A stretch of 64,000 nt of DNA from Patescibacteria group bacterium (GTDB lineage: Bacteria > Patescibacteriota > Patescibacteriia > UBA9934), in contig JBAZUI010000003.1 in assembly GCA_041661425.1 (NCBI GenBank), positions 10,446 to 74,445 of the forward strand. The letters are read 5' to 3'. Position 1 is the stretch's first letter. Every line of letters begins with the position of its first letter. Under the pieces are notes generated by a model. It saw only the letters and a program-made list of their open reading frames with translations, did not search any database and was not told the DNA's origin. Made by a program: the position numbers and the translations under genes. Shown here one piece after another: positions 906 through 52,292 of the stretch.

Positions 906-2630
906 GTGCTTGTGTTACATCAAAAAGGAAGGAATCAAGCGGTTGTGAGGACAATTTTTGGCGGGTTGAGCGTCAGTCTGCTGGCGGCTCCTGTTTTTGT
1001 TTTCGCACAAGACAGTTTAACGACCGTTGGCGAAACCGCCGGGATGGGTGGCGCGGATCTCATGACGATCATCGGGCGAATTATTGGCGTTTTTCTTGCC
1101 ATGCTCGGCGTGATCTTTTTGGGGCTCGTTCTCTACGCGGGGTTCTTGTGGATGACTTCAAAGGGAGAAGAGCAACAAATTCTCAAAGCAAAAAAAATGC
1201 TCATCAATGCCGTGATCGGACTCATGATTACGCTTGGCGCATACGGCATCACGAGTTTTGTTTTTGGAATGCTCACGGGTCATGGACTGTGGAACACCGG
1301 TGATGGGACTGGAACGGAAGATGACGGCGGAGTGTCAACGGAACGTCTTTCCGGGTCATTGGGCTCTGGCGGGATTGTTGATCACTACCCCGAACGTGGA
1401 GCGACCGATGTGGCGCGCAATACAAAAATTTTTGTGACGTTTCGCAATGCTATCAATACGGACGGTATCATGGATGCTGATGGAAAGCTCAACGATGGGA
1501 ACGTCGATATTTATCCAACTGCCGATGGGGAAGGGAGCGCTTTTGCCGGGGAAGAGGTGAGCGTTTCCGTGACCGAAGATTTGAAAACATTTATTTTTAC
1601 TCCTCCCACACTTGGATCGCCAACGGACGATGTTAAATATACCGTGGCTCTTTCCGATAATATCAAAGATGTTGATGGCGATAAGGTTTTGAACTCCGGT
1701 GGGTATGAATGGTTTTTTACCACAGGGACGGTGCTTGATTTGGATCCGCCAACCATCACGTCGGTTCAACCGAAGGCCGGGAAGAGCTATGCGCGAAATA
1801 TTGTTGTGGAAGTTAATTTTGATGAACCGATCGACCCAACGTCTTCCACGGGAACCTATCTTGCGTCTGACGCAACCAAACAATTTTCATCCATTCATGT
1901 TGCCGGCACAACCGGTGATTGGGTCGAGGGAGAATATGTCATGAGCAACGGCTATCAGACCATTACATTTATTACGAATGAAGTCTGTGGCACGAATTCC
2001 TGCGGCGATACGCTTTATTGTCTTCCGGGTGGAGAATTAATCGCAACAACCGTTGTGGCGGCCACCCCTGGGGCATCAGCTCCGCAGGTGGATGTCTACC
2101 CGGCAAATGGAATCGTTGATGTGGCGGGGAATGCGCTTGATGGAAATAATGATGGCACGGCCGGTGATAACTATGATTGGAGTTTTAATACCACGAATGA
2201 CATCGAACTCACGGCTCCAACCGTTTCTTCCATCTCTCCAACGATTCTTGGGGAGAATGTGGCGCTTGATCAACCGGTAACAGTCACGTTCTCCGATCTC
2301 ATGATGACTTCCACGCTCATTTCCGGAAATCTTGCGATCACGCCAAATCCCACGCATGAACTTTGGTATACGGTTCGAAGCACAGAAAAAAATGTGAGTG
2401 GGGAAGATGTCACTGAGTCCACCATGAGCCACGGAGTGTTTTTGACTTCAACCGATACAACAACCTATGTGTATCAAACAGATATTTCCAGTGTGAAGAA
2501 TCAATATCAAAATTGCTTCAATCCGGCAGATGGCCCGGGAAAAGTATCTGCCATGTGCGGAACGTCCGCGGCTTTGCCGTATTGTTGCAATGGGGTCGCC
2601 TCGGCCGCAATTTGTAATTTCTTTCAATAA
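906..2630 (+). CDS. Secreted/membrane surface protein with N-terminal VirB2/TrbC-like (CPR T4SS-pilin-like) two-helix module and Ig-like C-terminal region
   Basis: Signal peptide ends ...VFVFAQ. Two long hydrophobic helices are separated by a KGEEQQILKAKKMLINA loop, as in the next gene. Rest is beta-rich Thr/Asp-rich with a Cys-rich C-terminus. Confidence 0.6.
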   Translation: MLVLHQKGRNQAVVRTIFGGLSVSLLAAPVFVFAQDSLTTVGETAGMGGADLMTIIGRIIGVFLAMLGVIFLGLVLYAGFLWMTSKGEEQQILKAKKMLINAVIGLMITLGAYGITSFVFGMLTGHGLWNTGDGTGTEDDGGVSTERLSGSLGSGGIVDHYPERGATDVARNTKIFVTFRNAINTDGIMDADGKLNDGNVDIYPTADGEGSAFAGEEVSVSVTEDLKTFIFTPPTLGSPTDDVKYTVALSDNIKDVDGDKVLNSGGYEWFFTTGTVLDLDPPTITSVQPKAGKSYARNIVVEVNFDEPIDPTSSTGTYLASDATKQFSSIHVAGTTGDWVEGEYVMSNGYQTITFITNEVCGTNSCGDTLYCLPGGELIATTVVAATPGASAPQVDVYPANGIVDVAGNALDGNNDGTAGDNYDWSFNTTNDIELTAPTVSSISPTILGENVALDQPVTVTFSDLMMTSTLISGNLAITPNPTHELWYTVRSTEKNVSGEDVTESTMSHGVFLTSTDTTTYVYQTDISSVKNQYQNCFNPADGPGKVSAMCGTSAALPYCCNGVASAAICNFFQ

Positions 2631-2631
2631 C

Positions 2632-5600
2632 ATGCAACGCTTTTTTCTTTCATTGTTCATGGCATTCACCTTGCTCACGGGCGCAGGGGTCTTTCAGGTT
2701 TCTCATGTGTACGCCCAGACCGAGAGTCTCGAGACCGTTGGGGAAACCGCCGGGTTGAGTGCTGAGGATCCGAAAGTAATTATCGGGCGCATTATTCGAA
2801 CTGGACTCGGGGTGTTGGGGATCATTGCCACCTTAATTGTGCTCTACGGTGGCTGGCGATACATGACAGCGGGTGGGGATGCCGACAAAGTCGATAAAGC
2901 GAAAAAAATTCTCATCAACGGGGGAATCGGGCTTGTGATCATTCTCGCCTCGTATGCGATTACATCATTTGTTATTTCATCGCTTCTTAATGCGAGCGAC
3001 GGCGGAGGTGGGGGTGGCGGAGGTGGAGGTGATGGGGGAGGAGGACTTGGTGGAGGAAATGTTGCCACGTTTACCGTGACGAGTATTCGACCAAGCGGCG
3101 AAGTCTCGATTCGAAATATCAAAGTGACGGCAACACTGAGTCGAACGCTTTCCGCAACGCTTCCGGCCGATGCCATCCTTATTGCCAATGAGTCTGGTGA
3201 TCTTGTAGAGGGAACCATTGTCGCCGAAGGAAATTCTCTGACGTTTACTCCGATTGAATTTTGCCCAACGCCAAATGACGATCTCTTTTGTTTTGAAGAA
3301 AATACCACCTATACCGTGACCATCTCGAGTGATCTTGAAAGTTCAACTGGCACGAGTATCACTTGCGGCACGAATTGTTCGGGGACATTTACTTCCGGGA
3401 GTCTTGTGGATACGGAAGATCCTTTTGTGAGCATCACCTACCCCGATGATGGTGCGCGCATTCCGTATAGTCTTGGAGCCTCTATGATTCAGGCGGAAGC
3501 AACAGATGATTCGGAAATCTCAACAATTAGCTTTTACGAAAATGATTCTTTGTATGATGTTGTCCCGGCAAGCGGGCTCGACCTTTCCGACGTCCTTCTT
3601 TCAATGAATTGGGAGTGGTCATCGAGTCTTGCGGAAAATGCGACCGTGGCACTTAAAGCAATCGCGACCGATCTCGCGGGAAACACGGATAGTGATCGCA
3701 TTTCCGTACGCTTGAACCCGGCACATTGTTATAACGATGTACTCGACGCTGATTCAGGAGAAACATCTGTGGATTGCGGTGGCGATTGCGGGACTTGTGA
3801 CGGCGATGCGTGTACCGCGAATCTTGATTGCGCGAGCGGGGTTTGCATAGAAGGATTTTGCGTGGTTCCCCCGGTTATTACTTCTTTTACACCAACTGAT
3901 GCTGGTTTCGGGAGTTTTGTGACCATCACAGGAACTGGATTTGGACGGTCGGGAACGGTTTCATTTACGGGAGCAGATGGATCTCTTTTGACAGCGCAAA
4001 TCGCTTCATGCAGTGATGGGTGGAGCAGTGAGGAATTGGTTGTCGTGGTTCCGGAAGGAGTGAGTGACGGGCCTCTCACGCTGGTGGTTGGTGGTCTCAC
4101 CGAGAAAACGGATGATGAAAACGGTCCTCTTCTCGCGGATTTTACGATTGATTCAGAACCAACCGTGAGTCTGTGTCGGTTGAGTCCATCAAGCGGATAC
4201 GCGGGATCGACATTGACCATTACCGGACAAAATTTCGGAACACAAATTGATACATCGAGCGTTTTATTTGATGGTGTCACTCCGGCCACGATCAAGAGTT
4301 GGAAAGCGGATTCGATTCAGGTGACCGTTCCTTCTCTTGCGGGTAAGTCTTATGCGGTGACCGTGGTGAACGCGAATCTTTCCAATGCGCTTTCATTCGA
4401 TTTAAAAGCGGCATCGAGTTGGGAATCAACAGAAGCCATGCCAGTCATGAGCGCGATCACGCCAACGAGTGGTGGAAAAAATCAGTACCTCACGATTTCA
4501 GGATCAAATTTTGGATCATCGATTGGTGTGGTGTGGTTTGAAAATCCGACAAGTGGATACACGGCCATGGGAAGTGCAGATTTTCCGGAAGCCTGCAGTA
4601 CGACGTTCTGGAGCGATGATGAAATTACGATCATGGTGCCGGAGAGCTACATCAATGATGAATCGATTGCGATATCGGAACATACGGTCTTTGTGGCACG
4701 CCAAGATGGAAAAGAATCAAATAGCATTGATTTTACGATCACAACCGCCAATCCAACGCCGGGAATTTGTGGAATCGTGCCGGAAGAGGGAGCTCCGGGG
4801 ACGAGTGTGGTGATTTACGGGGATGGGTTTGGTGCGGGTGAAGGAGATATCCGTTTTTACAATGAAGCGCGAGCGAATTTTTCATCGTGGAACGATTCGG
4901 AAATCGTCACCGCAACTCCCGCGGCCGCTAAAAGTGGACCGGTGACGGTGATTGATGAAAATAGCGTAAAAAGTAATGGCGCGAACTTTTTGATTACCGG
5001 TTCCTCAGATCTTGACCCGGTTATTCCATTTATTCCAAAATACAGTTGGATTTTTTCCACTGGAAATATTCCTTTAGCACCGGAACCGATATTCGCTTGT
5101 TCGGAAACGCAAATCAGTGGCGTGCCGAATAAAGATTTCTCAAGCAATATTTGTCTCAACGCGAGTCTCTATGTGGAATTCACCATGCCGATGTCGACGA
5201 TCACGACCGATGGGTTTGTGGTTGAGGCATGTGAAACGAGTACGTGTAAAAATACCACTGTCGTTGAGGGAATGATCAATCAAGTCTCCTCAACGTCCGT
5301 TTATTTCTATCCGGATGAATTGTTACCCTCAACAACGTATCGCGTCACGCTCACAACGGATTCGCAATCAACAGATGGGGTGCCGCTCGGAAATGACGTG
5401 AGCTGGACGTTTACGACCGGAACTTCTGGAACGCAATGCCTTGTTGAAAAGATGTATGTGAGTCCGGAAACAATCACGGTGAATGCAATTGGCTCGACCG
5501 GTCAATTTAATGGGGTACCGGCAACGGCGGATTGTGTGCCGCTTGACTCACCATCTTATCTTTACACCTGGACCATTAATGAATCCTATGCTTCGAAAGG

Positions 5601-8600
5601 AAGCTGTAGCCCGAGCGCAAGTTCCTGTATGAAAGCAACAGCTTTGGCGGAAGGAACTGCGGCGGTGACGGTTAAGGAATCAGCGTCCGGTGTGAGTGGT
5701 GCTGGGAGTTTTGTCATTGATTTTACCGATCCGGAAGTGACAGCGTATTGGCCAAATTGTACCGAGGCGTGCGTGAACAGTGCCATTGGCGCCCGTTTTA
5801 ATACATCCATGGATAATTCTCTCGAGGACGCGGGAATGGTGACGCTCTCGAAATGTGAAAATGAACTTTGTGCCAATCTTGATGCCGGTGATTTGGTTTC
5901 GGCGGGTGTCGTTTGTGTGGCTGGAGCTGATGGAACGCCCTGTGTGGAAATGGCGCTCTCGCCTCTCACGACACTTGCCGCGAACACCTATTATAAAGTG
6001 ATGATTTCAGGGGAGATTGCGTCTTTGAGCGGGGTGACGCTTACCAAAACAAATGACGGCGAGGACTTCTCGTGGATTTTCGCAACCAAGAATGATGGAA
6101 CGCTTTGCTCGATTGATCGTGCGAGCGTGGAACCAGCAGAGGCACTTCTCAATGCGGTCGGTGAACGTCAATCCTTCTCGGTTTCGGCCTATGGAGAACC
6201 GGATGAATGTTCTGTGGCCGGTCAGGAATTGGTGGCAAGTGATTATGCGTGGGTGTGGGAAAATCCAATCATCAACGATCTTGATGTGGCGGCGTGGAAG
6301 ACGGTTGGCGGAGCGCTCTTTGATGCGGATGCGAGCTCAGTCTCGGGATGCACGAGTTCTTGCATGGCCTCAGGAAGTGATTCTTATGACGCGGTCTGCG
6401 CGAATGGTGCGCTTGAAGTTGGAGAAGAATGCGAGGATGGAAATCTCACGGAAGGGGATGGATGCTCGGCTCATTGTTTGCGTGAAGGAAAAGGCGGGGG
6501 AGGATCGTGTGGGGACGGGACGCTCAATCGCAGTGCAAGCGGTGCCGGGGAAGATTGTGATGACGGCAATACGAAGAGTGGCGATGGATGTTCCTCAACC
6601 TGTCTCAATGAAGGAGCAAATGCCGTTGCAGGAACGTGTGGAAATACAAGTATCGCTTATGCGGAAAATCAGGGAGGAGAGGATTGTGATGACGGAAATA
6701 AAAAGAGCGGTGATGGATGTTCGTCGAATTGTGTCAACGAAGGCTCACGAAGTTATGCGGAACTTTTTGCGGTTTGCGGCGATGGCGCGGTGACGGTTCC
6801 GTATGAATCCTGTGACGATGGAAATGGGCTAAACGAGGATGGATGTTCTTCTTCCTGCGTACGTGAAGGAACAATTGTTGGAATGACGTGTGGCAATGGA
6901 GCCGTTGAGAGACTCTCTTCAAATGCCGGGGAAGATTGTGATGACGGCAATACCGTCGATGGCGATGGCTGTTCCTCGCAGTGTACGTTTGAAGGTTCCT
7001 CCTCTTCTTATGTGACTCCTTCTGTTTGCGGCGATGGGCATGCGGGAATTGGTGAGGATTTCAATTGTGAGTTATTGGCTTCAGGTGATGGCAATATTGA
7101 TCCGATCCAGGATGCAGAAATCATGAACACCGCGGTCGACTTGGTTGATACGGAAACGCAACGTGCAACCGCCACGATTCGTGTGAAGGAACTAACTTCG
7201 AGCGTTGGAAGCGCATCAACTCTTTCGCTTTCCTGCGTGGCAGAAACAGCCGAGGATTGCCCCAGTGCTTCGCTTTATGGCGTTTCAGAAAATGGATGTT
7301 GTCTTCCGCGACCAACCGCGACGCTCATGCCAAACAGCAATGACGTTTGTTTGAACGCGTCGGTCTATGCCATTTTCTCGCAAGAAATGGATTTGGCCTC
7401 ATTTACCGATCGTGTCTATCTTCAACTCGATACCACGGTGATTGGAACCTGTCCAACCTCAAGCGGATACGAAGTTTACACTCCATCCACCACAACCGCT
7501 TCGAGCTTCATTCAAAAAGTTTTTTCTTTTGTTGTCTCGTCCATGTTTGCCCAATCAACCGGACCCTGTATTCTCCCGATTGTCTCTTCTTCGCAGGAAG
7601 CATTGACCGACGGCTCCTACAAAGTGACATTCAGAGTTGAGCATCCTCTCTATCCGGAGACCCAACATATGCTCGTCATTTTTGGGGATCAGACGAGTCG
7701 CGATCTGTCATTGCTTGTTGGTGGGTTGTCATTATCAGGTTCAACCGATTCGACAAGTGAGTGGTTGGGTGTTGTAGATAGTCATGGGATTGGGCTCTAT
7801 CTTACGACCGTTCAAACATTTACCACGACTGATTCCATGTGTCGGCTCGATGAAGTGATTATCACAGACTCTGCTGATGCGCCGGGCATGTTTACCTCTG
7901 CCAATGAATCGCATGATTTTTCAGCCGATGCCTATTCGTATCAAACCGGTTCGCGTCAAGAAATCGCTTCATTGCCCGGTGTTTACGCCTGGAAGTGGGA
8001 TCCTTGGCAGAGTTCGGATTCAACGATCGCTGTTATTGATTCTTCGAGCGAGGATACAGCCGTGATTTCTTCTTTGGAAACAAGCGGATCGTCAACGATT
8101 ATCGCTTCGGCGGCCGTGACCGAAGATGCGGTGGGAACCGATGAAACCGATGCGCTCACACGCTCGGATGATTATCAGGTTGAAGTGAGCATCTGCAATA
8201 TGCCATGGCCGGATTATGCCAACTATCCATTTATCGACGATGCCACCGGGACCGTTGATGGGACAAAGAAAGGCATTGCTTGGATGAATTTCTCTACGCA
8301 TTATTGTCGCGATGCAGGACTCCCCAGCGTGAGCGTGATTGCCCCGCCTGAGACAAAATCAGAAAATGTCATCAAAGAGTATCTTTTGAAAGTCGATGAT
8401 GGATCAGGGGATGCCATTGGTCTTCGTATTGCAAGTAATGAGGATTATCTTCCACCGGAGTTGTGGTATCGCGCTCAAGGATTTGCCGGCAGTCCAAGCA
8501 ATGAAAACGTGGATGGATTTGAAGCGGTTCGTGATGGGCGCACGGTTTATATTTCCGCGCCAAACTATGTTGCGGCGCTCAGTGCAGATAAAAGGAAATC

Positions 8601-11600
8601 GACTGTCAGCGCTCTTTATCCGAATATCTACATTCTTTCTTACAATGAAGGGGCGAGTGATGATACCATTGAAATTTTTAATCAAATCGTTGCCAATCTT
8701 TCGCTCATGACCAATGTTTCTTCCGCGGGTTTCTGTACCATTGTCAATAACAAATGGACCATTGGGGGCGCCTATACCACAACCACCTGTTCCTCGGATT
8801 TTGATTGTGGCGTTGGTGAGACTTGTGGGGATGTGCGTTCAAAAATTCAACGTGATGCCGCGCGCCTTACGGATCTTCGCACAATTGAAAATGCCTTAGC
8901 CGTCTACGGGGCAAGCAACGGCACTTGCTCGGCCACGACTTCACAACGTTGTACCAAATCAAGCGATTGCCCGACCGATGAATCATGTACGCCGTCGTAT
9001 CCGCAACTTGAGAGCGGAACGTACGTTCGGAGCCTTGTTGTGAGTTCATGGTCATCGTGGAATGAAGCGTTTGGAAAAACATTAGGTACCACTCTTCCGC
9101 TCGATCCAATCAATGAAGCTCCGGCTTGCGGAGTGGCGGATTCTTCTTTTGAGTCCTATGAAGCCGATACGTGCGTGAACACGACGACTGGTGCGTATCT
9201 TTGTCCTCTCAATTCCTATGCGTATCACTATCGTTCACTCGGCCCAAATGATTTTGATCTTACGGCTGAACTTGAATATCGTCTGGCGGATTGGGTCTAT
9301 GATATTGATACCTCCACGACGTATGATTTGATCGTTGGCGGGAATACCAGCACAAAAGTGGAAGGGTTTACCGGTGGAACGGCTTATTGCGATTCCTCAA
9401 CGGTCTATGGAAGCTCTTCGAGTTGCGGAGACGGTATTGTTGGCTCTGGAGAGACGTGTGAACTCGGTGAGGTGGGTCCATTGGTGAGCTGCACGGATAG
9501 TGCCGGGTTCTCGGGAACTTCGACACAAGTGTGTAACGCAACCTGCAAGGGGTGGACCTTGCCGACCGGTGCCACGTGTACGGCGTATTCCTGTGGAAAT
9601 GGACTTGTGGAATCGGGAGAAATTTGCGATGACGGTTCGCTCAATGGCACGTATGGTTTTTGCGGGTACGATTGCACGTATGGTTCTGGATTCTCTTGCG
9701 GTGATGGTTCGCTCGCAAGCGGAGAATTCTGTGATTGTGGATCCGCGACATCAAGCGGACGCACATACGGCGGGGGATTGTGTACCACGTACGGCGTTTT
9801 GAATGGGTCGTACCAAACAAATCCGGCGAATTCTTGTTCTTGGGATTGTACGGGCCCGGCGAGTTATTGCGGTGACGGTGCGGTTGACTCTGGTGAGGAA
9901 TGCGATGGGAATGTTGAAACCTATTCCGGACTTCTTTGTCGGCAAGGAATAACAAATATTGGAAGGACACAATCATCGAATGTCGGGAAAACATGTTTAC
10001 AAGATTCTGATTGTGGCACATTGGGTCGGTGTGGTGGAGTGGGGTCAGAACCGGTTTATGATGCTTGCCCAAACACAACGGTGTGTCTTTTGGGAGACGT
10101 AAATCTTCTTGGCTCGGCCTGTACCGTTGATAGCGATTGCGACAGCGTCGAAGGGGATGATGGCGTGTGTTCCGATGACGCGTTCCAAACAACACGAACC
10201 CGTACGTGTGCGGATGATGGCGCGAGCGGTGATGCGTGCACATGGGAAAGTCAATGGATGGATTTGGGGTGCAAGGCAGAAGTTCTTTGTGGAAATGGAG
10301 TGGTCGATAGTGGCGAAGCGTGCGACGATGGCAATGATTCCAATACTGATGACTGCACCGTGCAATGTACAAACAATTATTGCGGCGATGGCTATCTTTA
10401 CGAAAGTGTAGAGGAGTGTGATGAAGGATCATTGAACGGTGTTTCTTGTTCCTCAGCCTATGAAGCCGGGTGTTCCTATTGTTCGGAATCTTGTCTTTCG
10501 GTTGCGGAGAGCGGAACGTTCTGTGGTGATGGTGTCCGAAACGGAGGAGAGTATTGTGATGCCGGCGATATGCCTTACCTTTATGTGAACAACGATGGAT
10601 CGTTTAACGGAACGTGTGAATCAAGTGAGAAGGGCGAGAGCACGAGTGATGGTACGAGCACGTATTATTGTGCAAATGTTGGGGTCTGCGACGGAGGATC
10701 AGAGCAGGGAGATGTCTGCATCGCCTTTAGCACCGTCGCCATAGACTCGCTTTCCGTAGTGCTCTCAGATCTTTCTTCCTGCCCTGGTGGCACCTGTGTT
10801 TATCCATCATGTTCTCCAACGTGTGAGAGCAGCTGTCCGTTTACCAATGAATCAACGTCCATTCTCATGACCACGAATACGGATCGGACTAATCCGGTCG
10901 AGGAGATCTCGCTCGAGACCTACGGCATGCTCTCGGTTGATCGTGATGCGGGAACCATCATTCCAACCGCAGGAACACTTATGATGCCGGCATGCTCGAG
11001 CGCGAACAGTTTGCGCGCCAAGGTTTCATTTGAAGATTTTACTCGTCCACAAAATTATCTTGTTTTCGTTACGGATCTCTCTGCCTCCATGGCAACGACA
11101 TTCGAGAGCGGCGAGACTCGGCTCGAGGTGACAGAAGAGAGTATTCTTACTGCCGGAAAATCCCTCTTTAATGCATTAGGAGAAATGATTCGCGTGAGCA
11201 CGGTTGGGTATCAAGGTGGGAATGTTTATCTTCCCGGCGATGTTATTTCTGGCTATTCCGCGGGTGATGGGTTTATCAGCTCAGAAGCCTACGATGATCT
11301 CGCAACTGTTATTGCCTCTTATAGTCCCGGGGGCGGAACAAATACCTTCGGTGGTCTAGAGGCGGCAAAGAATCTTCTCGATGGAATCTCCGATGAAAAT
11401 ACACGAAAGATGGTCGTGCTCATGACAGATGGAGATTACACGGAAATTTACGGAGATCCCATGTATATGGCGTGTGTTCTTAAGGACGATGGGATTGAGT
11501 TATTTACAGCAACATTAGCGTCGGGGACACAGAGTACACTCAGCTCCGATGGGAATGAATGCGAAAAATATAAGAATAGCGATGGGACGTATATGAGCTA

Positions 11601-12069
11601 TGAGGATTATCTCAGCATTGCGGATACGCGTGTATCGATGTTTGCAACACTCAGCCTTCGCATTCATCATTTTTTCCATAGTTTTATCTCAACAGTTTTG
11701 GCACGAGGTATGGGAACGCTCGGCTGTGATTCATCGGTTATCCCGTTTGTTATCAATAAAATGGCTTGTTATTCGAGCGGAAATCCAAATCCAGATACGG
11801 GAATCGATTATGCCTATAACGGATCCACAAAAGAAGAATTACAGACGATGTATGAAGAGATTCTCCAATCAATTCTCGGAGTTTCTCTCGGGTTTGTGGT
11901 AAACGGATCAATGGTCACCGGAGCCATACAAGAAGGTACGAGCGTTGAGCTTCCGTGGCCAACGGGCTTTGCCTGTACTGGCGAGGAACAAGAACTCCCA
12001 ATTCGTCTCTTTTTTGAAGGGGAAGGCACGGTGGATATTAGTGATGTCTCACTCAATTATTGTGATTGA
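2632..12069 (+). CDS. Giant (~3145 aa) cell-surface protein: VirB2-like pilin module, poly-Gly linker, Ig-like and IPT/TIG repeats, Cys-rich CxxCDDGN repeats, C-terminal vWA domain
   Basis: In-frame ATG at 2632 lies right after the stop of the upstream paralog, giving MQRFF...signal. N-terminal module is ~50% identical to the 906 gene. ITGTGFG/ITGQNFG/ISGSNFG/IYGDGFG are IPT/TIG motifs. More than 15 CGDG..GE.CDDGN..GDGCS..C repeats (Myxococcus-type cysteine-rich repeat). vWA MIDAS DLSASM...TDGDY near the C-terminus. Confidence 0.7.
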   Translation: MQRFFLSLFMAFTLLTGAGVFQVSHVYAQTESLETVGETAGLSAEDPKVIIGRIIRTGLGVLGIIATLIVLYGGWRYMTAGGDADKVDKAKKILINGGIGLVIILASYAITSFVISSLLNASDGGGGGGGGGGDGGGGLGGGNVATFTVTSIRPSGEVSIRNIKVTATLSRTLSATLPADAILIANESGDLVEGTIVAEGNSLTFTPIEFCPTPNDDLFCFEENTTYTVTISSDLESSTGTSITCGTNCSGTFTSGSLVDTEDPFVSITYPDDGARIPYSLGASMIQAEATDDSEISTISFYENDSLYDVVPASGLDLSDVLLSMNWEWSSSLAENATVALKAIATDLAGNTDSDRISVRLNPAHCYNDVLDADSGETSVDCGGDCGTCDGDACTANLDCASGVCIEGFCVVPPVITSFTPTDAGFGSFVTITGTGFGRSGTVSFTGADGSLLTAQIASCSDGWSSEELVVVVPEGVSDGPLTLVVGGLTEKTDDENGPLLADFTIDSEPTVSLCRLSPSSGYAGSTLTITGQNFGTQIDTSSVLFDGVTPATIKSWKADSIQVTVPSLAGKSYAVTVVNANLSNALSFDLKAASSWESTEAMPVMSAITPTSGGKNQYLTISGSNFGSSIGVVWFENPTSGYTAMGSADFPEACSTTFWSDDEITIMVPESYINDESIAISEHTVFVARQDGKESNSIDFTITTANPTPGICGIVPEEGAPGTSVVIYGDGFGAGEGDIRFYNEARANFSSWNDSEIVTATPAAAKSGPVTVIDENSVKSNGANFLITGSSDLDPVIPFIPKYSWIFSTGNIPLAPEPIFACSETQISGVPNKDFSSNICLNASLYVEFTMPMSTITTDGFVVEACETSTCKNTTVVEGMINQVSSTSVYFYPDELLPSTTYRVTLTTDSQSTDGVPLGNDVSWTFTTGTSGTQCLVEKMYVSPETITVNAIGSTGQFNGVPATADCVPLDSPSYLYTWTINESYASKGSCSPSASSCMKATALAEGTAAVTVKESASGVSGAGSFVIDFTDPEVTAYWPNCTEACVNSAIGARFNTSMDNSLEDAGMVTLSKCENELCANLDAGDLVSAGVVCVAGADGTPCVEMALSPLTTLAANTYYKVMISGEIASLSGVTLTKTNDGEDFSWIFATKNDGTLCSIDRASVEPAEALLNAVGERQSFSVSAYGEPDECSVAGQELVASDYAWVWENPIINDLDVAAWKTVGGALFDADASSVSGCTSSCMASGSDSYDAVCANGALEVGEECEDGNLTEGDGCSAHCLREGKGGGGSCGDGTLNRSASGAGEDCDDGNTKSGDGCSSTCLNEGANAVAGTCGNTSIAYAENQGGEDCDDGNKKSGDGCSSNCVNEGSRSYAELFAVCGDGAVTVPYESCDDGNGLNEDGCSSSCVREGTIVGMTCGNGAVERLSSNAGEDCDDGNTVDGDGCSSQCTFEGSSSSYVTPSVCGDGHAGIGEDFNCELLASGDGNIDPIQDAEIMNTAVDLVDTETQRATATIRVKELTSSVGSASTLSLSCVAETAEDCPSASLYGVSENGCCLPRPTATLMPNSNDVCLNASVYAIFSQEMDLASFTDRVYLQLDTTVIGTCPTSSGYEVYTPSTTTASSFIQKVFSFVVSSMFAQSTGPCILPIVSSSQEALTDGSYKVTFRVEHPLYPETQHMLVIFGDQTSRDLSLLVGGLSLSGSTDSTSEWLGVVDSHGIGLYLTTVQTFTTTDSMCRLDEVIITDSADAPGMFTSANESHDFSADAYSYQTGSRQEIASLPGVYAWKWDPWQSSDSTIAVIDSSSEDTAVISSLETSGSSTIIASAAVTEDAVGTDETDALTRSDDYQVEVSICNMPWPDYANYPFIDDATGTVDGTKKGIAWMNFSTHYCRDAGLPSVSVIAPPETKSENVIKEYLLKVDDGSGDAIGLRIASNEDYLPPELWYRAQGFAGSPSNENVDGFEAVRDGRTVYISAPNYVAALSADKRKSTVSALYPNIYILSYNEGASDDTIEIFNQIVANLSLMTNVSSAGFCTIVNNKWTIGGAYTTTTCSSDFDCGVGETCGDVRSKIQRDAARLTDLRTIENALAVYGASNGTCSATTSQRCTKSSDCPTDESCTPSYPQLESGTYVRSLVVSSWSSWNEAFGKTLGTTLPLDPINEAPACGVADSSFESYEADTCVNTTTGAYLCPLNSYAYHYRSLGPNDFDLTAELEYRLADWVYDIDTSTTYDLIVGGNTSTKVEGFTGGTAYCDSSTVYGSSSSCGDGIVGSGETCELGEVGPLVSCTDSAGFSGTSTQVCNATCKGWTLPTGATCTAYSCGNGLVESGEICDDGSLNGTYGFCGYDCTYGSGFSCGDGSLASGEFCDCGSATSSGRTYGGGLCTTYGVLNGSYQTNPANSCSWDCTGPASYCGDGAVDSGEECDGNVETYSGLLCRQGITNIGRTQSSNVGKTCLQDSDCGTLGRCGGVGSEPVYDACPNTTVCLLGDVNLLGSACTVDSDCDSVEGDDGVCSDDAFQTTRTRTCADDGASGDACTWESQWMDLGCKAEVLCGNGVVDSGEACDDGNDSNTDDCTVQCTNNYCGDGYLYESVEECDEGSLNGVSCSSAYEAGCSYCSESCLSVAESGTFCGDGVRNGGEYCDAGDMPYLYVNNDGSFNGTCESSEKGESTSDGTSTYYCANVGVCDGGSEQGDVCIAFSTVAIDSLSVVLSDLSSCPGGTCVYPSCSPTCESSCPFTNESTSILMTTNTDRTNPVEEISLETYGMLSVDRDAGTIIPTAGTLMMPACSSANSLRAKVSFEDFTRPQNYLVFVTDLSASMATTFESGETRLEVTEESILTAGKSLFNALGEMIRVSTVGYQGGNVYLPGDVISGYSAGDGFISSEAYDDLATVIASYSPGGGTNTFGGLEAAKNLLDGISDENTRKMVVLMTDGDYTEIYGDPMYMACVLKDDGIELFTATLASGTQSTLSSDGNECEKYKNSDGTYMSYEDYLSIADTRVSMFATLSLRIHHFFHSFISTVLARGMGTLGCDSSVIPFVINKMACYSSGNPNPDTGIDYAYNGSTKEELQTMYEEILQSILGVSLGFVVNGSMVTGAIQEGTSVELPWPTGFACTGEEQELPIRLFFEGEGTVDISDVSLNYCD

Positions 12070-12070
12070 T

Positions 12071-12799
12071 ATGGATTGGCAAGCGCAACAATTTTATTCG
12101 CTCACTCCAGAGGGGACCCCGGTTCTCCCCGAGCAAGAATCTCCAAAAAAATCAGGAAAGAAAATTTTGATTTTGACTGGAGTTTTTTTGGGGGTTGTTG
12201 TTCTTGGGCTTGGCATTTGGGGAGTCATTGGTCTTTTTTCCGGTGAAGAAGTTGCCACGGAAGAAGCGGAGGTCTGTACGTTGGGTGAAGCAGGATGTTC
12301 AACGATCGCGGCTTTAGAAACAAGTGACATTGATTCTTGTGCCTCGCTTTCCGGAGATGAAAAAATTAATTGTGAAGACTTGGCGTATCTCTCGAAATCA
12401 CAGGATGAGGATGATGAATCGTGGTGCAAAAAAATCAAAAGCGAAATTCTAGCGACTTCTTGCGAGGATAATTTTGCCGCACAGGAGTCACTTCTCCGCA
12501 TTGAAGATGCGTCGCTCACGGGCAACCCGCTTGATTGTGAGGCGCTTGAGAATACGGACGATCAAGTGAATTGCCTTGACGTGATCGCTTCCATTGACGA
12601 AGATGAAGATGGCCTCACACGACAGGATGAATATGCGGCAGGAACGCTCGATACGGATTGGGATGCGGATAACGATGGATTGAACGATGGGGAAGAAGTG
12701 AGTATCCATGGGACTGATCCCCGGGAGATCGATACCGACGGTGATGGGTTCTCGGATTTTGTGGAGGTCCAGTCTGGTTATGACCCACTTGTCCCTTAA
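12071..12799 (+). CDS. Single-pass membrane protein with acidic ectodomain and thrombospondin-type-3-like Ca-binding repeats
   Basis: ATG at 12071 two nt after the giant gene stop. TM helix ILILTGVFLGVVVLGLGIWGVIGLF. DTDWDADNDGLNDGEE and DTDGDGFSDFVE are DxDxDG motifs. Confidence 0.55.
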   Translation: MDWQAQQFYSLTPEGTPVLPEQESPKKSGKKILILTGVFLGVVVLGLGIWGVIGLFSGEEVATEEAEVCTLGEAGCSTIAALETSDIDSCASLSGDEKINCEDLAYLSKSQDEDDESWCKKIKSEILATSCEDNFAAQESLLRIEDASLTGNPLDCEALENTDDQVNCLDVIASIDEDEDGLTRQDEYAAGTLDTDWDADNDGLNDGEEVSIHGTDPREIDTDGDGFSDFVEVQSGYDPLVP

Positions 12800-13482
12800 T
12801 GAGCTATAATAGAATTACTATGTTTGACAATCAACCAACCCCAAGCCCTGTTTCAGCCCCTCCGATTCCACAAAAACCCGTGGAAGATATTTTTAGCGCT
12901 TCCGAACCCATGCAGGCCACTGTGCCCGCACCTCAACCAGTTGTTAATCCTCTGGCGCAAAAAACAGCAATGCCGAATCCTCAAATTCCTTCCTCGGCGC
13001 CTCGAGTATCGCTCCCTCCGGTCCCAAAAAAAGGAGGAACAGGAAAAATTATTTTAGTTATTATTGGCATGATTCTCATTCTTGCCATTGCCGGTGGACT
13101 CGCCGTCTTTTTGATGTCAGGCTCATCTCTCGGCCTCTCTGATATTTTGTCAGGGACAGATGAATCGACCGATGAAACTACCCAGGATGGAAAGGGTGAT
13201 CTTATCCTCGATGAGGACGAGCCTGTGGTCGAAGAGGTGGCAGAAGAGCCGGTTGATAGCGATGGTGATGGATTGATGGACAGCGAAGAAATCAATGCCG
13301 GCACCGATCCATATAGCACAGATTCTGATCGTGATGGCTTGGGTGATCGTGAAGAGGTAAAAGTTTATGGAACCGATCCGCTTGATCCTGATAGTGATGG
13401 CGATACGTATCTTGATGGGAAAGAAGTTGAATCAGGATACAACCCCAATGGTGCGGGAAAGCTTTATGAAATCCCTGAGTAA
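12799..13482 (+). CDS. Paralogous single-pass membrane protein with TSP3-like DxDxDG repeats
   Basis: Pro-rich cytoplasmic N-terminus, TM IILVIIGMILILAIAGGLAVFLM, DSDGDGLMDSEE / DSDRDGLGDREE / DSDGDTYLDGKE. Confidence 0.55.
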   Translation: MSYNRITMFDNQPTPSPVSAPPIPQKPVEDIFSASEPMQATVPAPQPVVNPLAQKTAMPNPQIPSSAPRVSLPPVPKKGGTGKIILVIIGMILILAIAGGLAVFLMSGSSLGLSDILSGTDESTDETTQDGKGDLILDEDEPVVEEVAEEPVDSDGDGLMDSEEINAGTDPYSTDSDRDGLGDREEVKVYGTDPLDPDSDGDTYLDGKEVESGYNPNGAGKLYEIPE

Positions 13483-13484
13483 TT

Positions 13485-14435
13485 ATGGGGGATGATCGTC
13501 AAACGATTGAGGCTCCAACGCAGACGTCTCCCAAGGACGATGAGTTTGTGATTCACGTCATGCCAAAGGAATTCTTGGGAAAACCTGCGGCCGTTGTGCA
13601 ACCCATTGTTGCGCAAGCTCCTGTCAAAAAAGCGCTTCCTCCTTCGCCGGTCGTTGCTCCGTCAACCGCTCCGATGGCTCTACTTCCAAAGGGGACAGTG
13701 CCCATGCCGGCAAAAAAGCGTCACCTTCCTTGGGCGCTCATTGTTCTTCTTTTTGGGCTTCTTGTCGTTGTTGGAGGAGGAATTGTTTATTATTATTTTT
13801 TCCTTGTGACACCGGAGCCGGAGGTCGTCCCCGAGGAGGAAACACCGATTGTTGAAGAACCGGTCGCGATTCAGCCGGGGCACGATACGGATTCCGATGG
13901 GCTTACCGATACGGAGGAACTTCTTTATGGCACGGATTATCGTAATCCCGATACGGATGGCGATACATTCTTGGATGGGAATGAAGTTTTCCACCGGTAT
14001 GATCCGTTGGGATTCGCTCCATCAACCTTGCTCGACACGGGCTCGGTTCTCGAATTCACAACGTATGAATTGCCGCTTGGGGGTTTTCGAATTTATTATC
14101 CGGCTTCTTGGTCCATCGTAAACTCAAGCCAGACCACAATCACCTTTCACACGGAAAAAACAGAAGTGGTGACTTTGGAGCGGTTTCCAAAAACTGAGGA
14201 TTCATTCGGCTCCTGGTACGCGAATCGACCTGTTGAAGCGGCGCCCTTCTCGAGTCTTATGGCTTTTACCACAAAAGAAGGATTGGACGGGTATATGCAA
14301 GGCGATGAACGCTTGGCCTATATCGATCTTTCCGACGCGGTGTGGAAATTCTCTTATGATCTTGGCGATGAGGTGACCATTGATTATCTCCAGACGTTTC
14401 AGATGATGATTAATAGTTTTATTCTCGTCAAATGA
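13485..14435 (+). CDS. Paralogous single-pass membrane protein with TSP3-like repeats and C-terminal globular domain
   Basis: TM LIVLLFGLLVVVGGGIVYYYFFL, DTDSDGLTDTEE, DTDGDTFLDGNE. Confidence 0.55.
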   Translation: MGDDRQTIEAPTQTSPKDDEFVIHVMPKEFLGKPAAVVQPIVAQAPVKKALPPSPVVAPSTAPMALLPKGTVPMPAKKRHLPWALIVLLFGLLVVVGGGIVYYYFFLVTPEPEVVPEEETPIVEEPVAIQPGHDTDSDGLTDTEELLYGTDYRNPDTDGDTFLDGNEVFHRYDPLGFAPSTLLDTGSVLEFTTYELPLGGFRIYYPASWSIVNSSQTTITFHTEKTEVVTLERFPKTEDSFGSWYANRPVEAAPFSSLMAFTTKEGLDGYMQGDERLAYIDLSDAVWKFSYDLGDEVTIDYLQTFQMMINSFILVK

Positions 14436-14866
14436 TAAAACTTATTCTTCAGCAGACCCTTCTTCCGGTTGGTGAACAGTTTTCAAAAGATGATCTTTTA
14501 TTTATCGCAAAAACCATTGGGAGTCTTGTTGCTCAAAAAAAAGAGGGGGAAATTGCGATCGCCATGATCGATGATCAAGAAATTCAGCGATTGAATCGGA
14601 TGTATCGTGGAATCGATAAGGAAACCGATGTGCTTTCCTTCGGGTATGCGGACGCTTCTCATGCGAAGAATTCGCTTGGTGACGTTGTGATTTCTTATCC
14701 CCAGGCCGTGCGACAAGCGATCGGAAATACGCGCGGCGAGCTCCTCCGTTTGATGATTCACGGGATTCTTCATGTGCTTGGCTTTGATCACGAACGTCCG
14801 GAAGACGCTCGTCAAATGTTTCCTCTTGAAGATCAATTATTTTCTCAATTATCCTCTCTTGTATGA
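14432..14866 (+). CDS. ybeY: rRNA maturation endoribonuclease YbeY
   Basis: HGILHVLGFDHE H-x3-H-x5-H metal site, ~144 aa. Confidence 0.85.
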   Translation: MIKLILQQTLLPVGEQFSKDDLLFIAKTIGSLVAQKKEGEIAIAMIDDQEIQRLNRMYRGIDKETDVLSFGYADASHAKNSLGDVVISYPQAVRQAIGNTRGELLRLMIHGILHVLGFDHERPEDARQMFPLEDQLFSQLSSLV

Positions 14867-15243
14867 GTCAAATTTTCCAACGATTTTCTCGAAGTTTTCG
14901 TCACGCCTTTCATGGGATTGGCCTGATTTTGCGTCGAGAGCGAAGTTTTCAGGTACAGGTTTTCGCCGCGATCGTTGTTCTTACACTCGTTATTGCGCTC
15001 CCGCTCGATACATGGGAACGCGTTTTGCTCATTCTTTTGACCGCAGCCGTTCTGGTGCTCGAAATCCTCAATAGTATCTTCGAGCGAATTTCCGATGCGC
15101 TTCGCCCCCGTCTTGACCCGGTTGTGAAGGATGTGAAAGATATGATGGCTGGTGCTGTTCTTCTCACCTCTATGACGGCGGCCGTGATTGCGGTTCTTAT
15201 TCTTTGGGATTATTTCGTCAATTTTGTCGCCTCACGCTTTTAG
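14863..15243 (+). CDS. dgkA: Diacylglycerol/undecaprenol kinase family
   Basis: 126 aa, three TM, EILNSIFE motif (DgkA E-x-NSAIE). Confidence 0.75.
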   Translation: MSQIFQRFSRSFRHAFHGIGLILRRERSFQVQVFAAIVVLTLVIALPLDTWERVLLILLTAAVLVLEILNSIFERISDALRPRLDPVVKDVKDMMAGAVLLTSMTAAVIAVLILWDYFVNFVASRF

Positions 15244-15249
15244 GGTATA

Positions 15250-16509
15250 ATGGATGCTATCGTTATGGCGGAACGTACGATTACAGGGTTAGATATCGGC
15301 TCTTCGCGTATTCGCGTTGTGGTTTCGCAAGCATTACCCGGAGAAGATTCAAAACCTTGCCTTCATGTCCTTGGCGCTGTGGAAGTTCCATCTATTGGAA
15401 TTCATCGTGGAAGCATCTCGAGTATCGAGGATGCTGTTTCTTCTATTTCAAAGGCTCTTGAAAAATCAGAACGCATGACCGGGAAGCCGGTGAATCACGC
15501 CTGGGTTTCGATTGCCGGTCAACAAATGCTTGTGCAGGAGAGTCGGGGAGTGATTGGCGTTTCCCGTCCATCCGGGGAGATCCAGGAGGAAGATGTTGAA
15601 CGCGTTATCGAGGCGGCTCGTACCGTGGCAACCCCATCGAATTACGAGATTTTGCACGTCATTCCCAAGAGTTTTACCGTGGATGGCCAGCGGGGTATTA
15701 AAGATCCGGTTGGCATGCATGGCATTCGGTTGGAAGTGGACGCGGTCATTATCCAGACGATTTCATCTCACATAAAAAATGTTACCAAGAGTGTTTATCG
15801 TACCGGGCTTGATATTGATGATTTGGTTTTTTCGCCTCTAGCCACGGCCGAAGCAGTGCTCACCCCGCGACAGAAGGAATTGGGTGTTTGCGTTGCCGAT
15901 ATTGGGGCGACGAGTACCACATTAGTGGTCTACGAGGAAGGAGATATGCTCCATACCGCGGTTTTACCAATCGGGGGTGATCACATTACCCATGATTTGG
16001 CGATTGTTCTTCGAACATCTATTGAGATTGCGGAGCAAGTGAAGAGAGGAATTGGATGTGCGGTTCCTGATCAGGCATTGAAGGAACCATGCAATCTTCG
16101 GGATTTCGGTTCTGGCGAGGATGAAGTTCTGAAACCTCGACTTGTTTCCGAGATCATTGAAGCACGAGCAGAAGAAATTTTTGAGGCAATTGATGATGAA
16201 CTTCGAAAAATCGATCGTTCCGGCATGCTTCCGGTTGGGGTAGTTTTGACGGGTGGGGCCGTGAAACTTCCAGGGATGGCCGATGTGGCAAAACGCGTTT
16301 TGCGTCTCCCGGTTTCCATCGGTTTTCCCTCGGGTGTCAGCAGTGCGATCGACGAAGTGCGCGATCCGGCTTATGCGACGGCCGTCGGATTGGCAATGTG
16401 GGGTTTTGCCATTGAATCAACCTCACATGGAAAGTTTAAATTCGCCATAAAAGGCATCCAGGATATTTCTGATACGGTTCGGAAATGGCTAAAAACATTG
16501 ATCCCATAA
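15250..16509 (+). CDS. ftsA: Cell division protein FtsA
   Basis: GLDIGSSRIRVVV actin-like phosphate-1 motif, ~419 aa, directly upstream of ftsZ. Confidence 0.85.
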   Translation: MDAIVMAERTITGLDIGSSRIRVVVSQALPGEDSKPCLHVLGAVEVPSIGIHRGSISSIEDAVSSISKALEKSERMTGKPVNHAWVSIAGQQMLVQESRGVIGVSRPSGEIQEEDVERVIEAARTVATPSNYEILHVIPKSFTVDGQRGIKDPVGMHGIRLEVDAVIIQTISSHIKNVTKSVYRTGLDIDDLVFSPLATAEAVLTPRQKELGVCVADIGATSTTLVVYEEGDMLHTAVLPIGGDHITHDLAIVLRTSIEIAEQVKRGIGCAVPDQALKEPCNLRDFGSGEDEVLKPRLVSEIIEARAEEIFEAIDDELRKIDRSGMLPVGVVLTGGAVKLPGMADVAKRVLRLPVSIGFPSGVSSAIDEVRDPAYATAVGLAMWGFAIESTSHGKFKFAIKGIQDISDTVRKWLKTLIP

Positions 16510-16554
16510 TTTGACGAATAAAGTGAGTCAAAGTGTGGCTCATTTTTTTGTTGT

Positions 16555-31628: not shown

Positions 31629-32083
31629 ATTGGATCGCCACACGGGTTCATCTCCCCGGCTTTTCGATGCTCGAAATGCTTCTTGTGGTGGCAACCATTG
31701 GGATTCTTGCCACCATTTCTATCCCGATCTATCGCTCAATCCTCACGGGGAATGAAATGCAAGTCGCGCGTGAAATTCTTGTGCGTGGCCTTCGTGTTGC
31801 AGAGCTTCGCACCCAATCAGGAGCTGAGGATGCATCTTGGGGAGTATTTGCACAAAGCGGTTCCGTGACGATTTTTTCCGGAGCGAACTATGTTGAGCGC
31901 GATCCAACCCTTGATGATATTTATGTCGTCTCCCAAGAACTCAATTTTTCCGGAGATACGGAAGTGACGTTCACCGCCCCGTTCGGTCAGCTTCTCACGG
32001 AAAAAACACTCATCCTCTCTCAAACTGGACATGACTCCATTTCAATTACCATTAATCTTGAAGGAGCAATCGCCTATGAATAG
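31625..32083 (+). CDS. Pseudopilin (GspH/FimT-like) with prepilin cleavage motif
   Basis: ATGA overlap with pilC. PGFSMLEMLLVVATIGILA matches G|F..LE at +5. Confidence 0.7.
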   Translation: MNWIATRVHLPGFSMLEMLLVVATIGILATISIPIYRSILTGNEMQVAREILVRGLRVAELRTQSGAEDASWGVFAQSGSVTIFSGANYVERDPTLDDIYVVSQELNFSGDTEVTFTAPFGQLLTEKTLILSQTGHDSISITINLEGAIAYE

Positions 32084-35402: not shown

Positions 35403-35403
35403 T

Positions 35404-35904
35404 ATGGAATATCGTGCAAAAGGATTTACTCTCATTGAACTCCTCCTCTATATTGCCTGTGCATCAGTCATTCTTTTACTGGGAGGATCATTTTTGCACA
35501 TGGTGCTCGAAACGCGTGTGCGTCAGGAAGTGATGTCAACGGTCGAAGAAGAAGGACGATTTGCCATGAATACAATCATTGCAGAGATTCGCACAGCGTC
35601 ACATGTCGCCGCTCCTCTGCCTGCAATAACAAGCACGTCACTTCTATTGGATATGCCAGGGGGAACACAGGAGACGTTTGTTTTATCCGGAACCGTACTT
35701 GTATTTACGCGTGGCGTTAATCCATCTCTATCTCTCACATCAAATCTTGTTGAAATAAGCAATCTTCAATTTCAAAATGTGAGTGCGGAAAATGCGGGGG
35801 ATAGTATCAAAATCACCTTCACACTTTCACATGTCAACTCTTCGAATAAATCCGAGTATACCTATGTCCAAACGTTCACAAGCGCGACAACAATCCGGCC
35901 ATAA
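35404..35904 (+). CDS. Minor pseudopilin (PilW/GspJ-like)
   Basis: AKGFTLIELLLYIA prepilin motif. Confidence 0.65.
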   Translation: MEYRAKGFTLIELLLYIACASVILLLGGSFLHMVLETRVRQEVMSTVEEEGRFAMNTIIAEIRTASHVAAPLPAITSTSLLLDMPGGTQETFVLSGTVLVFTRGVNPSLSLTSNLVEISNLQFQNVSAENAGDSIKITFTLSHVNSSNKSEYTYVQTFTSATTIRP

Positions 35905-36286: not shown

Positions 36287-36324
36287 ACAATCAAGTATAA
36301 TCAAATAAACATTTAACAATAGAT

Positions 36325-36786: not shown

Positions 36787-36787
36787 T

Positions 36788-37234: not shown

Positions 37235-37283
37235 GGGGATGTCGAGGCAGGTCTGTGACCTGCCTTTGTGATTTTCGTTATTT

Positions 37284-38086: not shown

Positions 38087-38163
38087 GGGTCGGTAGTTCA
38101 ATTGGTTAGAGCACCGCCCTGTCACGGCGGAAGTTGCGGGTTCGAGCCCCGTCCGACCCGCCA
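38087..38163 (+). tRNA. tRNA-Asp (GTC)
   Basis: GGGTCGG acceptor stem, anticodon loop CTGTCAC, TTCGAGC T-loop, encoded CCA. Confidence 0.9.
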
Positions 38164-52287: not shown

Positions 52288-52292
52288 AGAAG

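Follow-up and report, generated by a model that had tools for sequence, protein, structure and literature searches.

Pilins of the VirB2 type are known as small subunits of conjugative pili. VirB2 of the Agrobacterium T-pilus (PDB 8cue and 8exh), TrbC of RP4 and TraA of F measure ~70–120 residues in their mature form and polymerise together with lipid; cyclisation or C-terminal trimming is frequent, and their genes accompany virB3-virB11. In Patescibacteria (candidate phyla radiation, CPR), little is known about how cells contact their hosts and stay attached, or about the role of an unusual type IV secretion system (T4SS). This system includes pilins, usually has no relaxase and was essential in the one species tested. 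The VirB2-like pilins of these bacteria (PF18895), among them an essential array encoded in the Southlakia epibionticum T4SS locus, have been treated as small proteins and lie near virB4 in 1,135 of 1,948 assemblies (PMC12102498). They form tandem arrays of 2–11 genes with 25–54% identity, and adhesin homologues such as PrgB were not detected in the same survey (PMC12102498). Here, we describe two adjacent genes, gene 1 and gene 2, from a 64-kb window of a Patescibacteria metagenome-assembled genome (MAG); this window is the whole stretch of DNA analysed, and all coordinates refer to it. Both products begin with a predicted hairpin of the same family and layout as these pilins, followed by large ectodomains. 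We propose, with a probability of roughly 55%, that they form a Sec-exported, hairpin-anchored fibrillar surface or adhesion complex, in which the hairpin would act as an oligomerising membrane anchor and not as a subunit of a pilus shaft.

The comparison with the small patescibacterial pilins reveals both likeness and difference. At 49% identity, the modules of genes 1 and 2 fall within the paralogue range typical of these pilins. However, the hairpin constitutes only the first 20% of 561 aa in the gene 1 product and the first 4% of 3145 aa in that of gene 2, nearby T4SS genes were not found and the pair keeps a fixed place beside genes for TSP3-repeat proteins. With VirB2, TrbC and TraA, the modules share the topology, a weak profile similarity and a basic residue in the inter-helix loop, whereas the loop is 8 residues longer here and the proteins are known from their genes alone. 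A monoderm conjugation component, the 'Mbov_0395 family pilin-like conjugal transfer protein' of Mycoplasma integrative and conjugative elements (NF045849), matches the same hairpin in both genes but, unlike them, is a protein of ~80 aa located in a mobile element.

Two other kinds of surface structure resemble the pair in architecture. In Streptococcus sanguinis, modular type IV pilins have been described, PilB with a vWA module and PilC with a lectin module. They embody the same idea of a pilin polymerisation module joined to an adhesive one, including a vWA domain with a metal ion-dependent adhesion site (MIDAS), but they belong to the type IV pilin superfamily, possess a class III signal peptide and carry modules of a few hundred residues versus ~3000 here. 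Giant fibrillar adhesins include the RTX type (LapA, SiiE) and LPXTG-anchored Gram-positive fibrils. These likewise present a long Ig-like stalk, ligand-binding domains at the far end and a dependence on divalent cations; they are anchored by a type I secretion system retention module or by sortase, whereas an N-terminal two-helix hairpin would take this part here. Pam pili, which we also considered, are an Ig-fold donor-strand system that is not related to this hairpin (bioRxiv 10.64898/2026.03.03.709456). In the literature, we found no description of the hairpin fused to large ectodomains, nor of the conserved gene cassette reported below, whose members are publicly annotated as 'Ig-like domain-containing protein', 'pilin' or 'hypothetical protein'.

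Two adjacent genes share an N-terminal hairpin module

The two genes and their N-terminal elements are as follows:

945–2630, + strand: gene 1, 561 aa, stop codon included; pilin hairpin, three Big_5 domains and a conserved Cys-rich C-terminus
945–1007, + strand: gene 1 signal peptide, aa 1–21, predicted cleavage between VFA and QD; hydrophobic segment 2–22, A-Q nearly invariant
1008–1280, + strand: gene 1 VirB2-like hairpin module, aa 22–112; transmembrane segments ~36–72 and 85–110, PF18895 and NF045849 matches
2632–12069, + strand: gene 2, 3145 aa, stop codon included; pilin hairpin and long ectodomain
2632–2718, + strand: gene 2 signal peptide, aa 1–29, predicted cleavage between VYA and QT; hydrophobic segment 3–23, model helix 2–19, conserved A-Q
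2719–2997, + strand: gene 2 VirB2-like hairpin module, aa 30–122, with basic loop MTAGGDADKVDKAKK; PF18895 match, AlphaFold helices

The initial annotation of this region (906–12069) had given the coordinates and the structure of both genes correctly; the open reading frame (ORF) of gene 1 spans 906–2630. It had also called both products giant, which applies to gene 2 and not to gene 1. The likeliest start of gene 1 is the GTG at 945, with AAAGGAAGG upstream at 924–932, and its stop codon (2628–2630) is separated from the ATG of gene 2 (2632) by 1 nt. The two genes are paralogues, probably co-transcribed and translationally coupled. The gene 2 frame is also open from an upstream ATG at 2530, which overlaps the end of gene 1 (2530–2631) and owing to which automatic gene callers may give gene 2 as a protein of 3179 aa. 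The gene 1 product is 100% identical to MFA6130857.1 (NCBI, 'Ig-like domain-containing protein'), encoded on a contig of 77.6 kb.

In both proteins, a signal-peptide-like helix is followed by a polar LxTVGETAG stretch, a hydrophobic helix, a Gly/Asp/Lys-rich loop and a second hydrophobic helix, with KAKK located between the two transmembrane segments. A hydropathy scan detects in each protein a signal-peptide helix and two transmembrane helices, and the AlphaFold model of the gene 2 module contains helices at 47–78 and 84–122 with a predicted local distance difference test (pLDDT) score of 88–97; the arrangement of signal peptide, helix, basic loop and helix first read from the translations is thus borne out. 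The identity of the two modules, estimated at ~50%, amounts to 57 of 117 aligned columns (48.7%), and the homology between the two products extends to about residue 280, into the first Ig-like domain (33%, E 5e-23, BLASTP).

The module is strongly conserved among homologues. 'WMTAGGxxxKVxKAKK' is a strong majority consensus in the giant and in the short families, and M78, T79, G82, A90 and K91, in or beside it, are invariant or nearly so. In the module alignment, G63, G74, G82 and G100 are invariant, and the A-Q cleavage pair nearly invariant. For gene 1 orthologues, the mean pairwise identity reaches 63% in the first transmembrane helix (TM1), the best-conserved stretch of the family, and 56% in the loop and in the second helix (TM2); it is 32% in the signal peptide, 35% in the linker and 47–58% in the folded ectodomains. 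Because the hairpin is as strongly conserved as the folded domains and several glycines of its helices are invariant, it seems to be more than a passive anchor. This conservation fits specific helix–helix contacts, either between the paralogues or with an assembly machine.

Assignment of the hairpin to the T4SS_pilin family

The gene 2 product exceeds the gathering threshold of PF18895 (T4SS_pilin, 26.6 bits) with 37.5 bits when the module is scored by itself and 31.6 bits over the full length (match at 59–114), and gene 1 lies just under it (23.5 bits, E 6e-5). All 34 orthologous modules, taken from giant and short homologues, match PF18895 at E ≤ 0.01 (best 1.9e-13), and nearly all listed gene 1 orthologues bear a precomputed match to this family. 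The TrbC/VirB2 model PF04956 recognizes 6 of the 34 modules (best 4e-5), with no match in genes 1 and 2 themselves, and NF045849 (NCBIfam) detects the hairpin of both genes (E 1.7e-8 and 3.4e-8, 33–34 bits), under its equivalog cut-off of 40. When the module profile was aligned to Agrobacterium VirB2 with hhalign, using a VirB2 sequence checked against PDB 8cue, residues 43–105 fell in register on mature pilin 52–107 (E 1.3e-3, probability 18%).

The module has the layout of PF18895, namely a signal peptide, two hydrophobic helices and a short polar/basic loop, as judged by hydropathy, AlphaFold and loop conservation. Two further traits of conjugative pilins are absent: the proteins, with 561 and 3145 aa, are far from being little more than a hairpin, and they are not encoded with T4SS genes at the loci examined. 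The profile of the module alignment recovered no pilin from the PDB sequences, and a Foldseek search of the PDB with the module model returned generic helical hairpins only, including ATP synthase subunit c, CHMP and SipB fragments, with nothing at E ≤ 1e-3. As the unit has just two helices, fold comparison cannot settle its homology.

The generic fold matches, the PDB profile search without a pilin, the score of gene 1 under the Pfam cut-off and the hhalign probability of just 18% would all be compatible with a generic signal-anchor or two-helix hairpin that came to resemble VirB2 by compositional convergence. We consider such convergence very improbable, since three profiles match independently and motifs are conserved. 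The curated PF18895 threshold is exceeded by gene 2 and by nearly every orthologue, independent models (PF04956 in part of the modules, and NF045849) mark the same stretch, and a relative with tandem modules, P0002 (606 aa, seven hairpin copies), reaches 54.9 bits on TrbC, above the family cut-off. Moreover, sequence motifs are conserved, which goes beyond mere hydrophobicity. The sequence comparisons therefore support that the N-termini of both proteins belong to the T4SS_pilin hairpin family (PF18895, VirB2/TrbC-related). The initial annotation had proposed a pilin-type module, to be doubted if pilin models failed to match or if homologues lacked the conserved loop; neither occurred, since PF18895 was matched by gene 2 and by all the orthologous modules and the loop consensus is kept in both families.

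Ectodomains of the two proteins

As far as can be judged from the translations, all parts past helix 2 are extracellular-type, disulfide-rich domains. In gene 1, Big_5 matches three stretches (Pfam, E 1.1e-18), corresponding to three Ig-like domains, and these are followed by a C-terminal motif with conserved cysteines, eight of which are invariant in 32 orthologues. For gene 2, Pfam was run on the whole protein and on ten segments, complemented by NCBIfam, and the following parts were delimited:

2998–3069, + strand: Gly-rich linker GGGGGGGGGGDGGGGLGGG, aa 123–146, read from the translation
3070–6087, + strand: Ig-like stalk, aa 147–1152, with Big_5, Big_7, four TIG and two more Big_5 domains (Pfam)
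6379–7071, + strand: cysteine-rich acidic repeat block 1, aa 1250–1480, 5–6 units (TIGR02232, PF13948, motif count)
8194–9417, + strand: two-domain unit, aa 1855–2262, without Pfam match; a PsbP/Mog1/LpqN-like domain, then an alpha/beta domain
9424–10611, + strand: cysteine-rich repeat block 2, aa 2265–2660, ~6 more degenerate units (PF13948 in two stretches, motif count)
11059–11541, + strand: vWA domain with complete MIDAS, aa 2810–2970 (PF00092)
residues 2971–3145 of gene 2: tail without assigned domain

Within the stalk, the Big_5 domains occupy residues 147–243, 834–929 and 1032–1152, Big_7 residues 264–310 and the four TIG domains ~420–790. The protein holds 136 Cys residues. Its repeats match TIGR02232 (myxo_disulf; DUF4215-type repeats) with 164.9 bits against a cut-off of 20.8, in six stretches, and PF13948 on the whole protein with 84.5 bits, in seven stretches. 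The poly-Gly linker, the Ig-like and four TIG domains and the two cysteine-rich blocks had all been recognized in the initial annotation, but its figure of more than 15 cysteine-rich units was too high: there are ~11–12 by motif (12 'CG[DN][GT]' and 11 'ExC[DE]xG') and 6–7 by hidden Markov model (HMM). The C-terminal vWA domain with an intact MIDAS was likewise found again. It scores 29.7–34.6 bits against a cut-off of 23.8, the MIDAS residues read from the sequence are D2815, S2817 and S2819 (DxSxS), T2903 and D2933, and DxSxS is retained in most of the 37 homologues that possess a vWA domain.

Between the two cysteine-rich blocks, residues ~1530–2270 have no Pfam match; residues 1836–2262 were modelled with a pLDDT of 85 and a predicted template modelling score (pTM) of 0.86. 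The alpha/beta domain at ~2048–2262 contains a motif (RD..RL.DL..I...L..Y ... P.DP.N) for which a type IV pilin head was considered; we regard this as a weak resemblance only. Pfam, PDB sequence searches and Foldseek were all negative for this reading, the alignment with the window's own type IV pilin (hhalign) was in register but weak, and the class III leader, the N-methylation motif and a hydrophobic alpha1-N are lacking in this segment. In addition, the two-domain unit occurs in stand-alone homologues, whose leaders are ordinary Sec signal peptides and not of the pilin type. A homologue search with the internal segment gave 3 matches only and is uninformative on the coupling of anchor and ectodomain, because it missed known close relatives.

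The gene pair belongs to a widespread cassette

The two genes form part of a cassette consisting of a ~600-aa pilin-Ig protein, a ~3100-aa giant and then TSP3 membrane proteins. At least 579 GTDB species representatives encode a relative of gene 1. The cassette genomes with an informative name are Ca. Uhrbacteria, Parcubacteria or 'Patescibacteria group', and the three cassette assemblies located in Table S1 of PMC12102498 are all of class ABY1. With the gene 2 module as query, phmmer retrieved 26,322 cluster representatives at E ≤ 1e-3 from 1.84 billion scanned. The best 150 of these 26,322 include 46 proteins of >2000 aa that carry the module at their very start and are 48–69% identical to gene 2, ~27 proteins of 400–700 aa, ~19 of <200 aa and ~40 with 2–8 tandem copies of the module. 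For gene 1, 327 homologues were detected; those listed measure ~517–640 aa and nearly all combine PF18895 with Big_5 (PF13205). A tblastn search with the module against 72,556 plasmids gave no match.

In 76 of the 80 species-level loci retrieved, the gene 1 orthologue is followed by another ORF with the module, nearly always as the next one; of the 4 loci without it, 3 break off at a contig edge. Such a recurrence of the pair and its module is far beyond chance. Complete giants have a median length of 3140 aa (range 1550–3450), and among 95 giants compared the homologues of ~3000–3500 aa match gene 2 collinearly over most of its length. At all 18 loci with a complete next ORF and an unsplit giant, this ORF contains TSP3 motifs, a synteny that supports the link between the TSP3 genes and the pair suggested in the initial annotation. 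The genes upstream of the cassette vary among three annotated homologous loci.

Two variants of the module were noted in these surveys. In 5 of the 80 loci (L061, L069, L075, L077 and L080), a third, small pilin-only ORF of 136–202 aa, measured from stop to stop, lies between gene 1 and the giant; it is possibly a shaft-type or adaptor pilin, and no such ORF is present between the two genes of the window. The other variant comprises 'poly-pilins', single chains with 2–8 tandem T4SS_pilin hairpins, represented by P0002, P0010 and ~40 others among the best 150 matches. P0002 is encoded in an eight-pilin gene array (locus L085, 9005–14262) that lacks a virB4 within 10 kb. Pilins chained covalently in this way do not fit easily with the subunit of a classical pilus.

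Membrane anchor or pilus component

In the arrangement that we favour, the signal peptide would be removed at the conserved A-Q site after Sec export, and the hairpin would reside in the cytoplasmic membrane with its Lys-rich loop inside, helix 2 leading the C-terminal part outward. The gene 2 product would form a long disulfide-stabilised fibril, extending from the Gly linker through the Ig/TIG domains and the cysteine-rich acidic repeats to a distal vWA-MIDAS, which may bind a ligand via a metal ion. The gene 1 product, with the same hairpin and three Ig domains, could pair with that of gene 2 via the unusually conserved hairpins, and the downstream Ca-binding TSP3 membrane proteins may be part of the same envelope complex. 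The likeliest role of such a complex would be to attach the cell to another cell or a surface, or to make contact with it. The hairpin is unlikely to be the repeating unit of a pilus shaft, since a 3000-aa appendage seems implausible there. An adhesin role, a link with the T4SS and a link with host dependence go beyond the sequence results; they are interpretations, and the proposed function as a whole is plausible.

Several points weigh against an anchored adhesion complex. The adhesive function is suggested by domain types alone. Across hundreds of species, the family keeps a single copy, a collinear layout and ~50% identity; it appears more conservative than typical host-specific adhesins and could have a structural role in the envelope. 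The distal vWA module is not universal, as this part aligned in only ~45% of the giant homologues. Finally, the conservation of the hairpin would be equally expected if an assembly machine recognised it, and the occurrence of VirB4 in many Uhrbacteria assemblies, one of them with its only VirB2-type hit far from virB4, leaves room for a link with the T4SS.

None of virB4, virB6 and virD4 is present in the window, which also contains no further copy of the hairpin module and no shaft pilin gene. The ±10 kb around the cassette in the three annotated homologous loci yielded no T4SS gene either, and neither did a sample of ten large flanking ORFs taken from eight further loci. In the published table, VirB4 is recorded for one of the three cassette assemblies and not for the other two, all three being incomplete MAGs. 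The Uhrbacteria assembly with a lone VirB2-type hit, GW2011_GWC2_40_450, has VirB3, VirB4 and TrsD in the same table.

These data bear on the possibility that the proteins are modular T4SS pilins. A chromosomal VirB3-VirB4-TrsD machine would then pull the two hairpins out of the membrane and add them to a VirB2-type pilus, either as the first (tip) subunits or as occasional ones, and the pilus would display the giant ectodomain at its end. The homology of the module to T4SS pilins is in agreement with this, as is the strong conservation of the hairpin, including the pre-TM1 segment and the basic loop. The structures of the F-pilus and T-pilus show that this loop contacts lipid in conjugative pili. 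The hairpin would point outward with both its ends, so that a C-terminal fusion would fit sterically on the outer face of a pilus. The gene content of GW2011_GWC2_40_450 and the five loci with an extra small pilin-only gene point in the same direction, and patescibacterial T4SSs are exceptional among monoderms, with essential VirB2-like pilins (PMC10633639, PMC12102498, PMC12857230). However, no T4SS gene was found in the window, in the three annotated loci (±10 kb) or among the large flanking ORFs sampled, two of the three cassette assemblies were scored VirB4-negative, albeit as incomplete MAGs, and the window offers no gene for the shaft. We also found no precedent for a pilin of the VirB2 family with a large C-terminal domain, and the fold search was unable to tell this hairpin from other helical hairpins. 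On balance, incorporation into a pilus seems unlikely to us. A still more doubtful proposal is that the ABY1 T4SS, devoid of relaxase, makes no plain conjugative pilus but draws these hairpins out of the membrane to build a short stem of pilins, with a ~100-nm, vWA-tipped adhesin covalently joined as its tip. If true, the T4SS would be a deployment machine for host attachment; the proteins would be the first T4SS pilins with a fused functional module and would give a direct clue to the essential role of the patescibacterial T4SS.

Downstream genes and a possible role in the envelope

The following features flank the gene pair:

880–888, + strand: extended −10-like element TGATATAAT, 5' of gene 1, read directly from the sequence; candidate only
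12071–12799, + strand: TSP3-repeat single-pass membrane protein 1 (PF18884 E 8.2e-12, 45.2 bits; one transmembrane helix)
12799–13482, + strand: TSP3-repeat single-pass membrane protein 2 (PF18884 E 2.7e-13, 49.9 bits; translation)
13485–14435, + strand: single-pass membrane protein 3 with a weak TSP3 match (PF18884 E 0.0046, 17.2 bits; translation)

Three TSP3-repeat membrane proteins had been predicted downstream of the pair. The first two clearly belong to TSP3_bac (PF18884, cut-off 25 bits), whereas the third remains below the cut-off. The ATG of the first (12071) lies 2 nt past the stop codon of gene 2, and ybeY, dgkA, ftsA, ftsZ and pyruvate kinase come after the three membrane-protein genes. 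From 945 to the end of ftsA (16509), the intergenic gaps vary from −4 to +6 nt. The sole good terminator-like hairpin is at 16520–16546, in scans that are at background level: neither promoter-like nor terminator-like sites in the region rise above the shuffled background, and no full −35/−10 pair was flagged upstream of gene 1 by the consensus scanner. These short gaps, and the lack of a convincing terminator before 16520–16546, suggest that gene 1, gene 2, the three TSP3-type genes, ybeY, dgkA and ftsA constitute one long operon (945–16509), the limits of which are based on gene spacing only. Judged by the sizes of the ORFs that follow the cassette, L056, L059, L068 and L072 would have this gene order as well.

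This genomic context is relevant to another explanation, in which the proteins would be a structural part of the envelope and not an adhesin, for example a membrane-rooted canopy, an S-layer-like scaffold or a cell-wall spacer serving architecture or division. The cassette of the window is packed, with no detectable terminators, ahead of ybeY, dgkA, ftsA and ftsZ; a similar run of ORF sizes occurs downstream in several other loci, and LytR_cpsA_psr genes lie upstream in several. Big_5 domains, present in both proteins, are Ig-like domains typical of S-layer proteins, and a single-copy, vertically conserved and collinear cassette in at least 579 species-level genomes would suit a structural function. 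On the other hand, the distal vWA domain with its intact MIDAS is a ligand-binding device, and a single ~3100-aa chain with a flexible Gly linker would be unusual as a lattice former. A purely structural role thus appears rather improbable, and we retain the hairpin-anchored surface complex as the preferred reading.

Other features of the window

Several envelope appendage systems are concentrated in the window, since the cassette, a large surface-type protein and a type IV pilus operon lie close together. The surface-type protein (21065–26563, 1832 aa) contains DUF6923 beta-propeller-like repeats, an M14 carboxypeptidase domain and fn3. The type IV pilus operon (28258–38039) is complete, with PilB, PilC carrying a C-terminal SH3 domain, at least 3 N_methyl pilins and PilD, and it also encodes a 1123-aa protein without Pfam match.

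Two islands, at 38400–42000 and 48800–52400, have a GC content of 0.56–0.69 versus ~0.48 for the genome. The first begins directly after a tRNA-Asp gene (38087–38163) and encodes, on the minus strand, two Ala/Pro/Asp/Glu-rich proteins with a single transmembrane segment and no Pfam match. The second holds genes for two proteins, one with a signal peptide and one that is lipoprotein-like and has four MopE 'Cu-binding' Cys/Asp repeats (50799–52016, E 3.4e-31). The islands could have been acquired from a high-GC donor, or the assembly could be chimeric here. MopE-repeat proteins also adjoin the cassette elsewhere, in an ORF cluster of five loci of which one representative was scanned (L017:2955–5108).

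Significance

In one large lineage, a VirB2-type hairpin forms the N-terminus of two surface proteins that are conserved as a pair, which extends the architectures of the T4SS pilin family past small stand-alone pilins. The cassette poses an either/or question, whether the hairpin is a membrane anchor or the tip of a pilus, and it provides a concrete and widespread candidate for an attachment or envelope structure of these bacteria.

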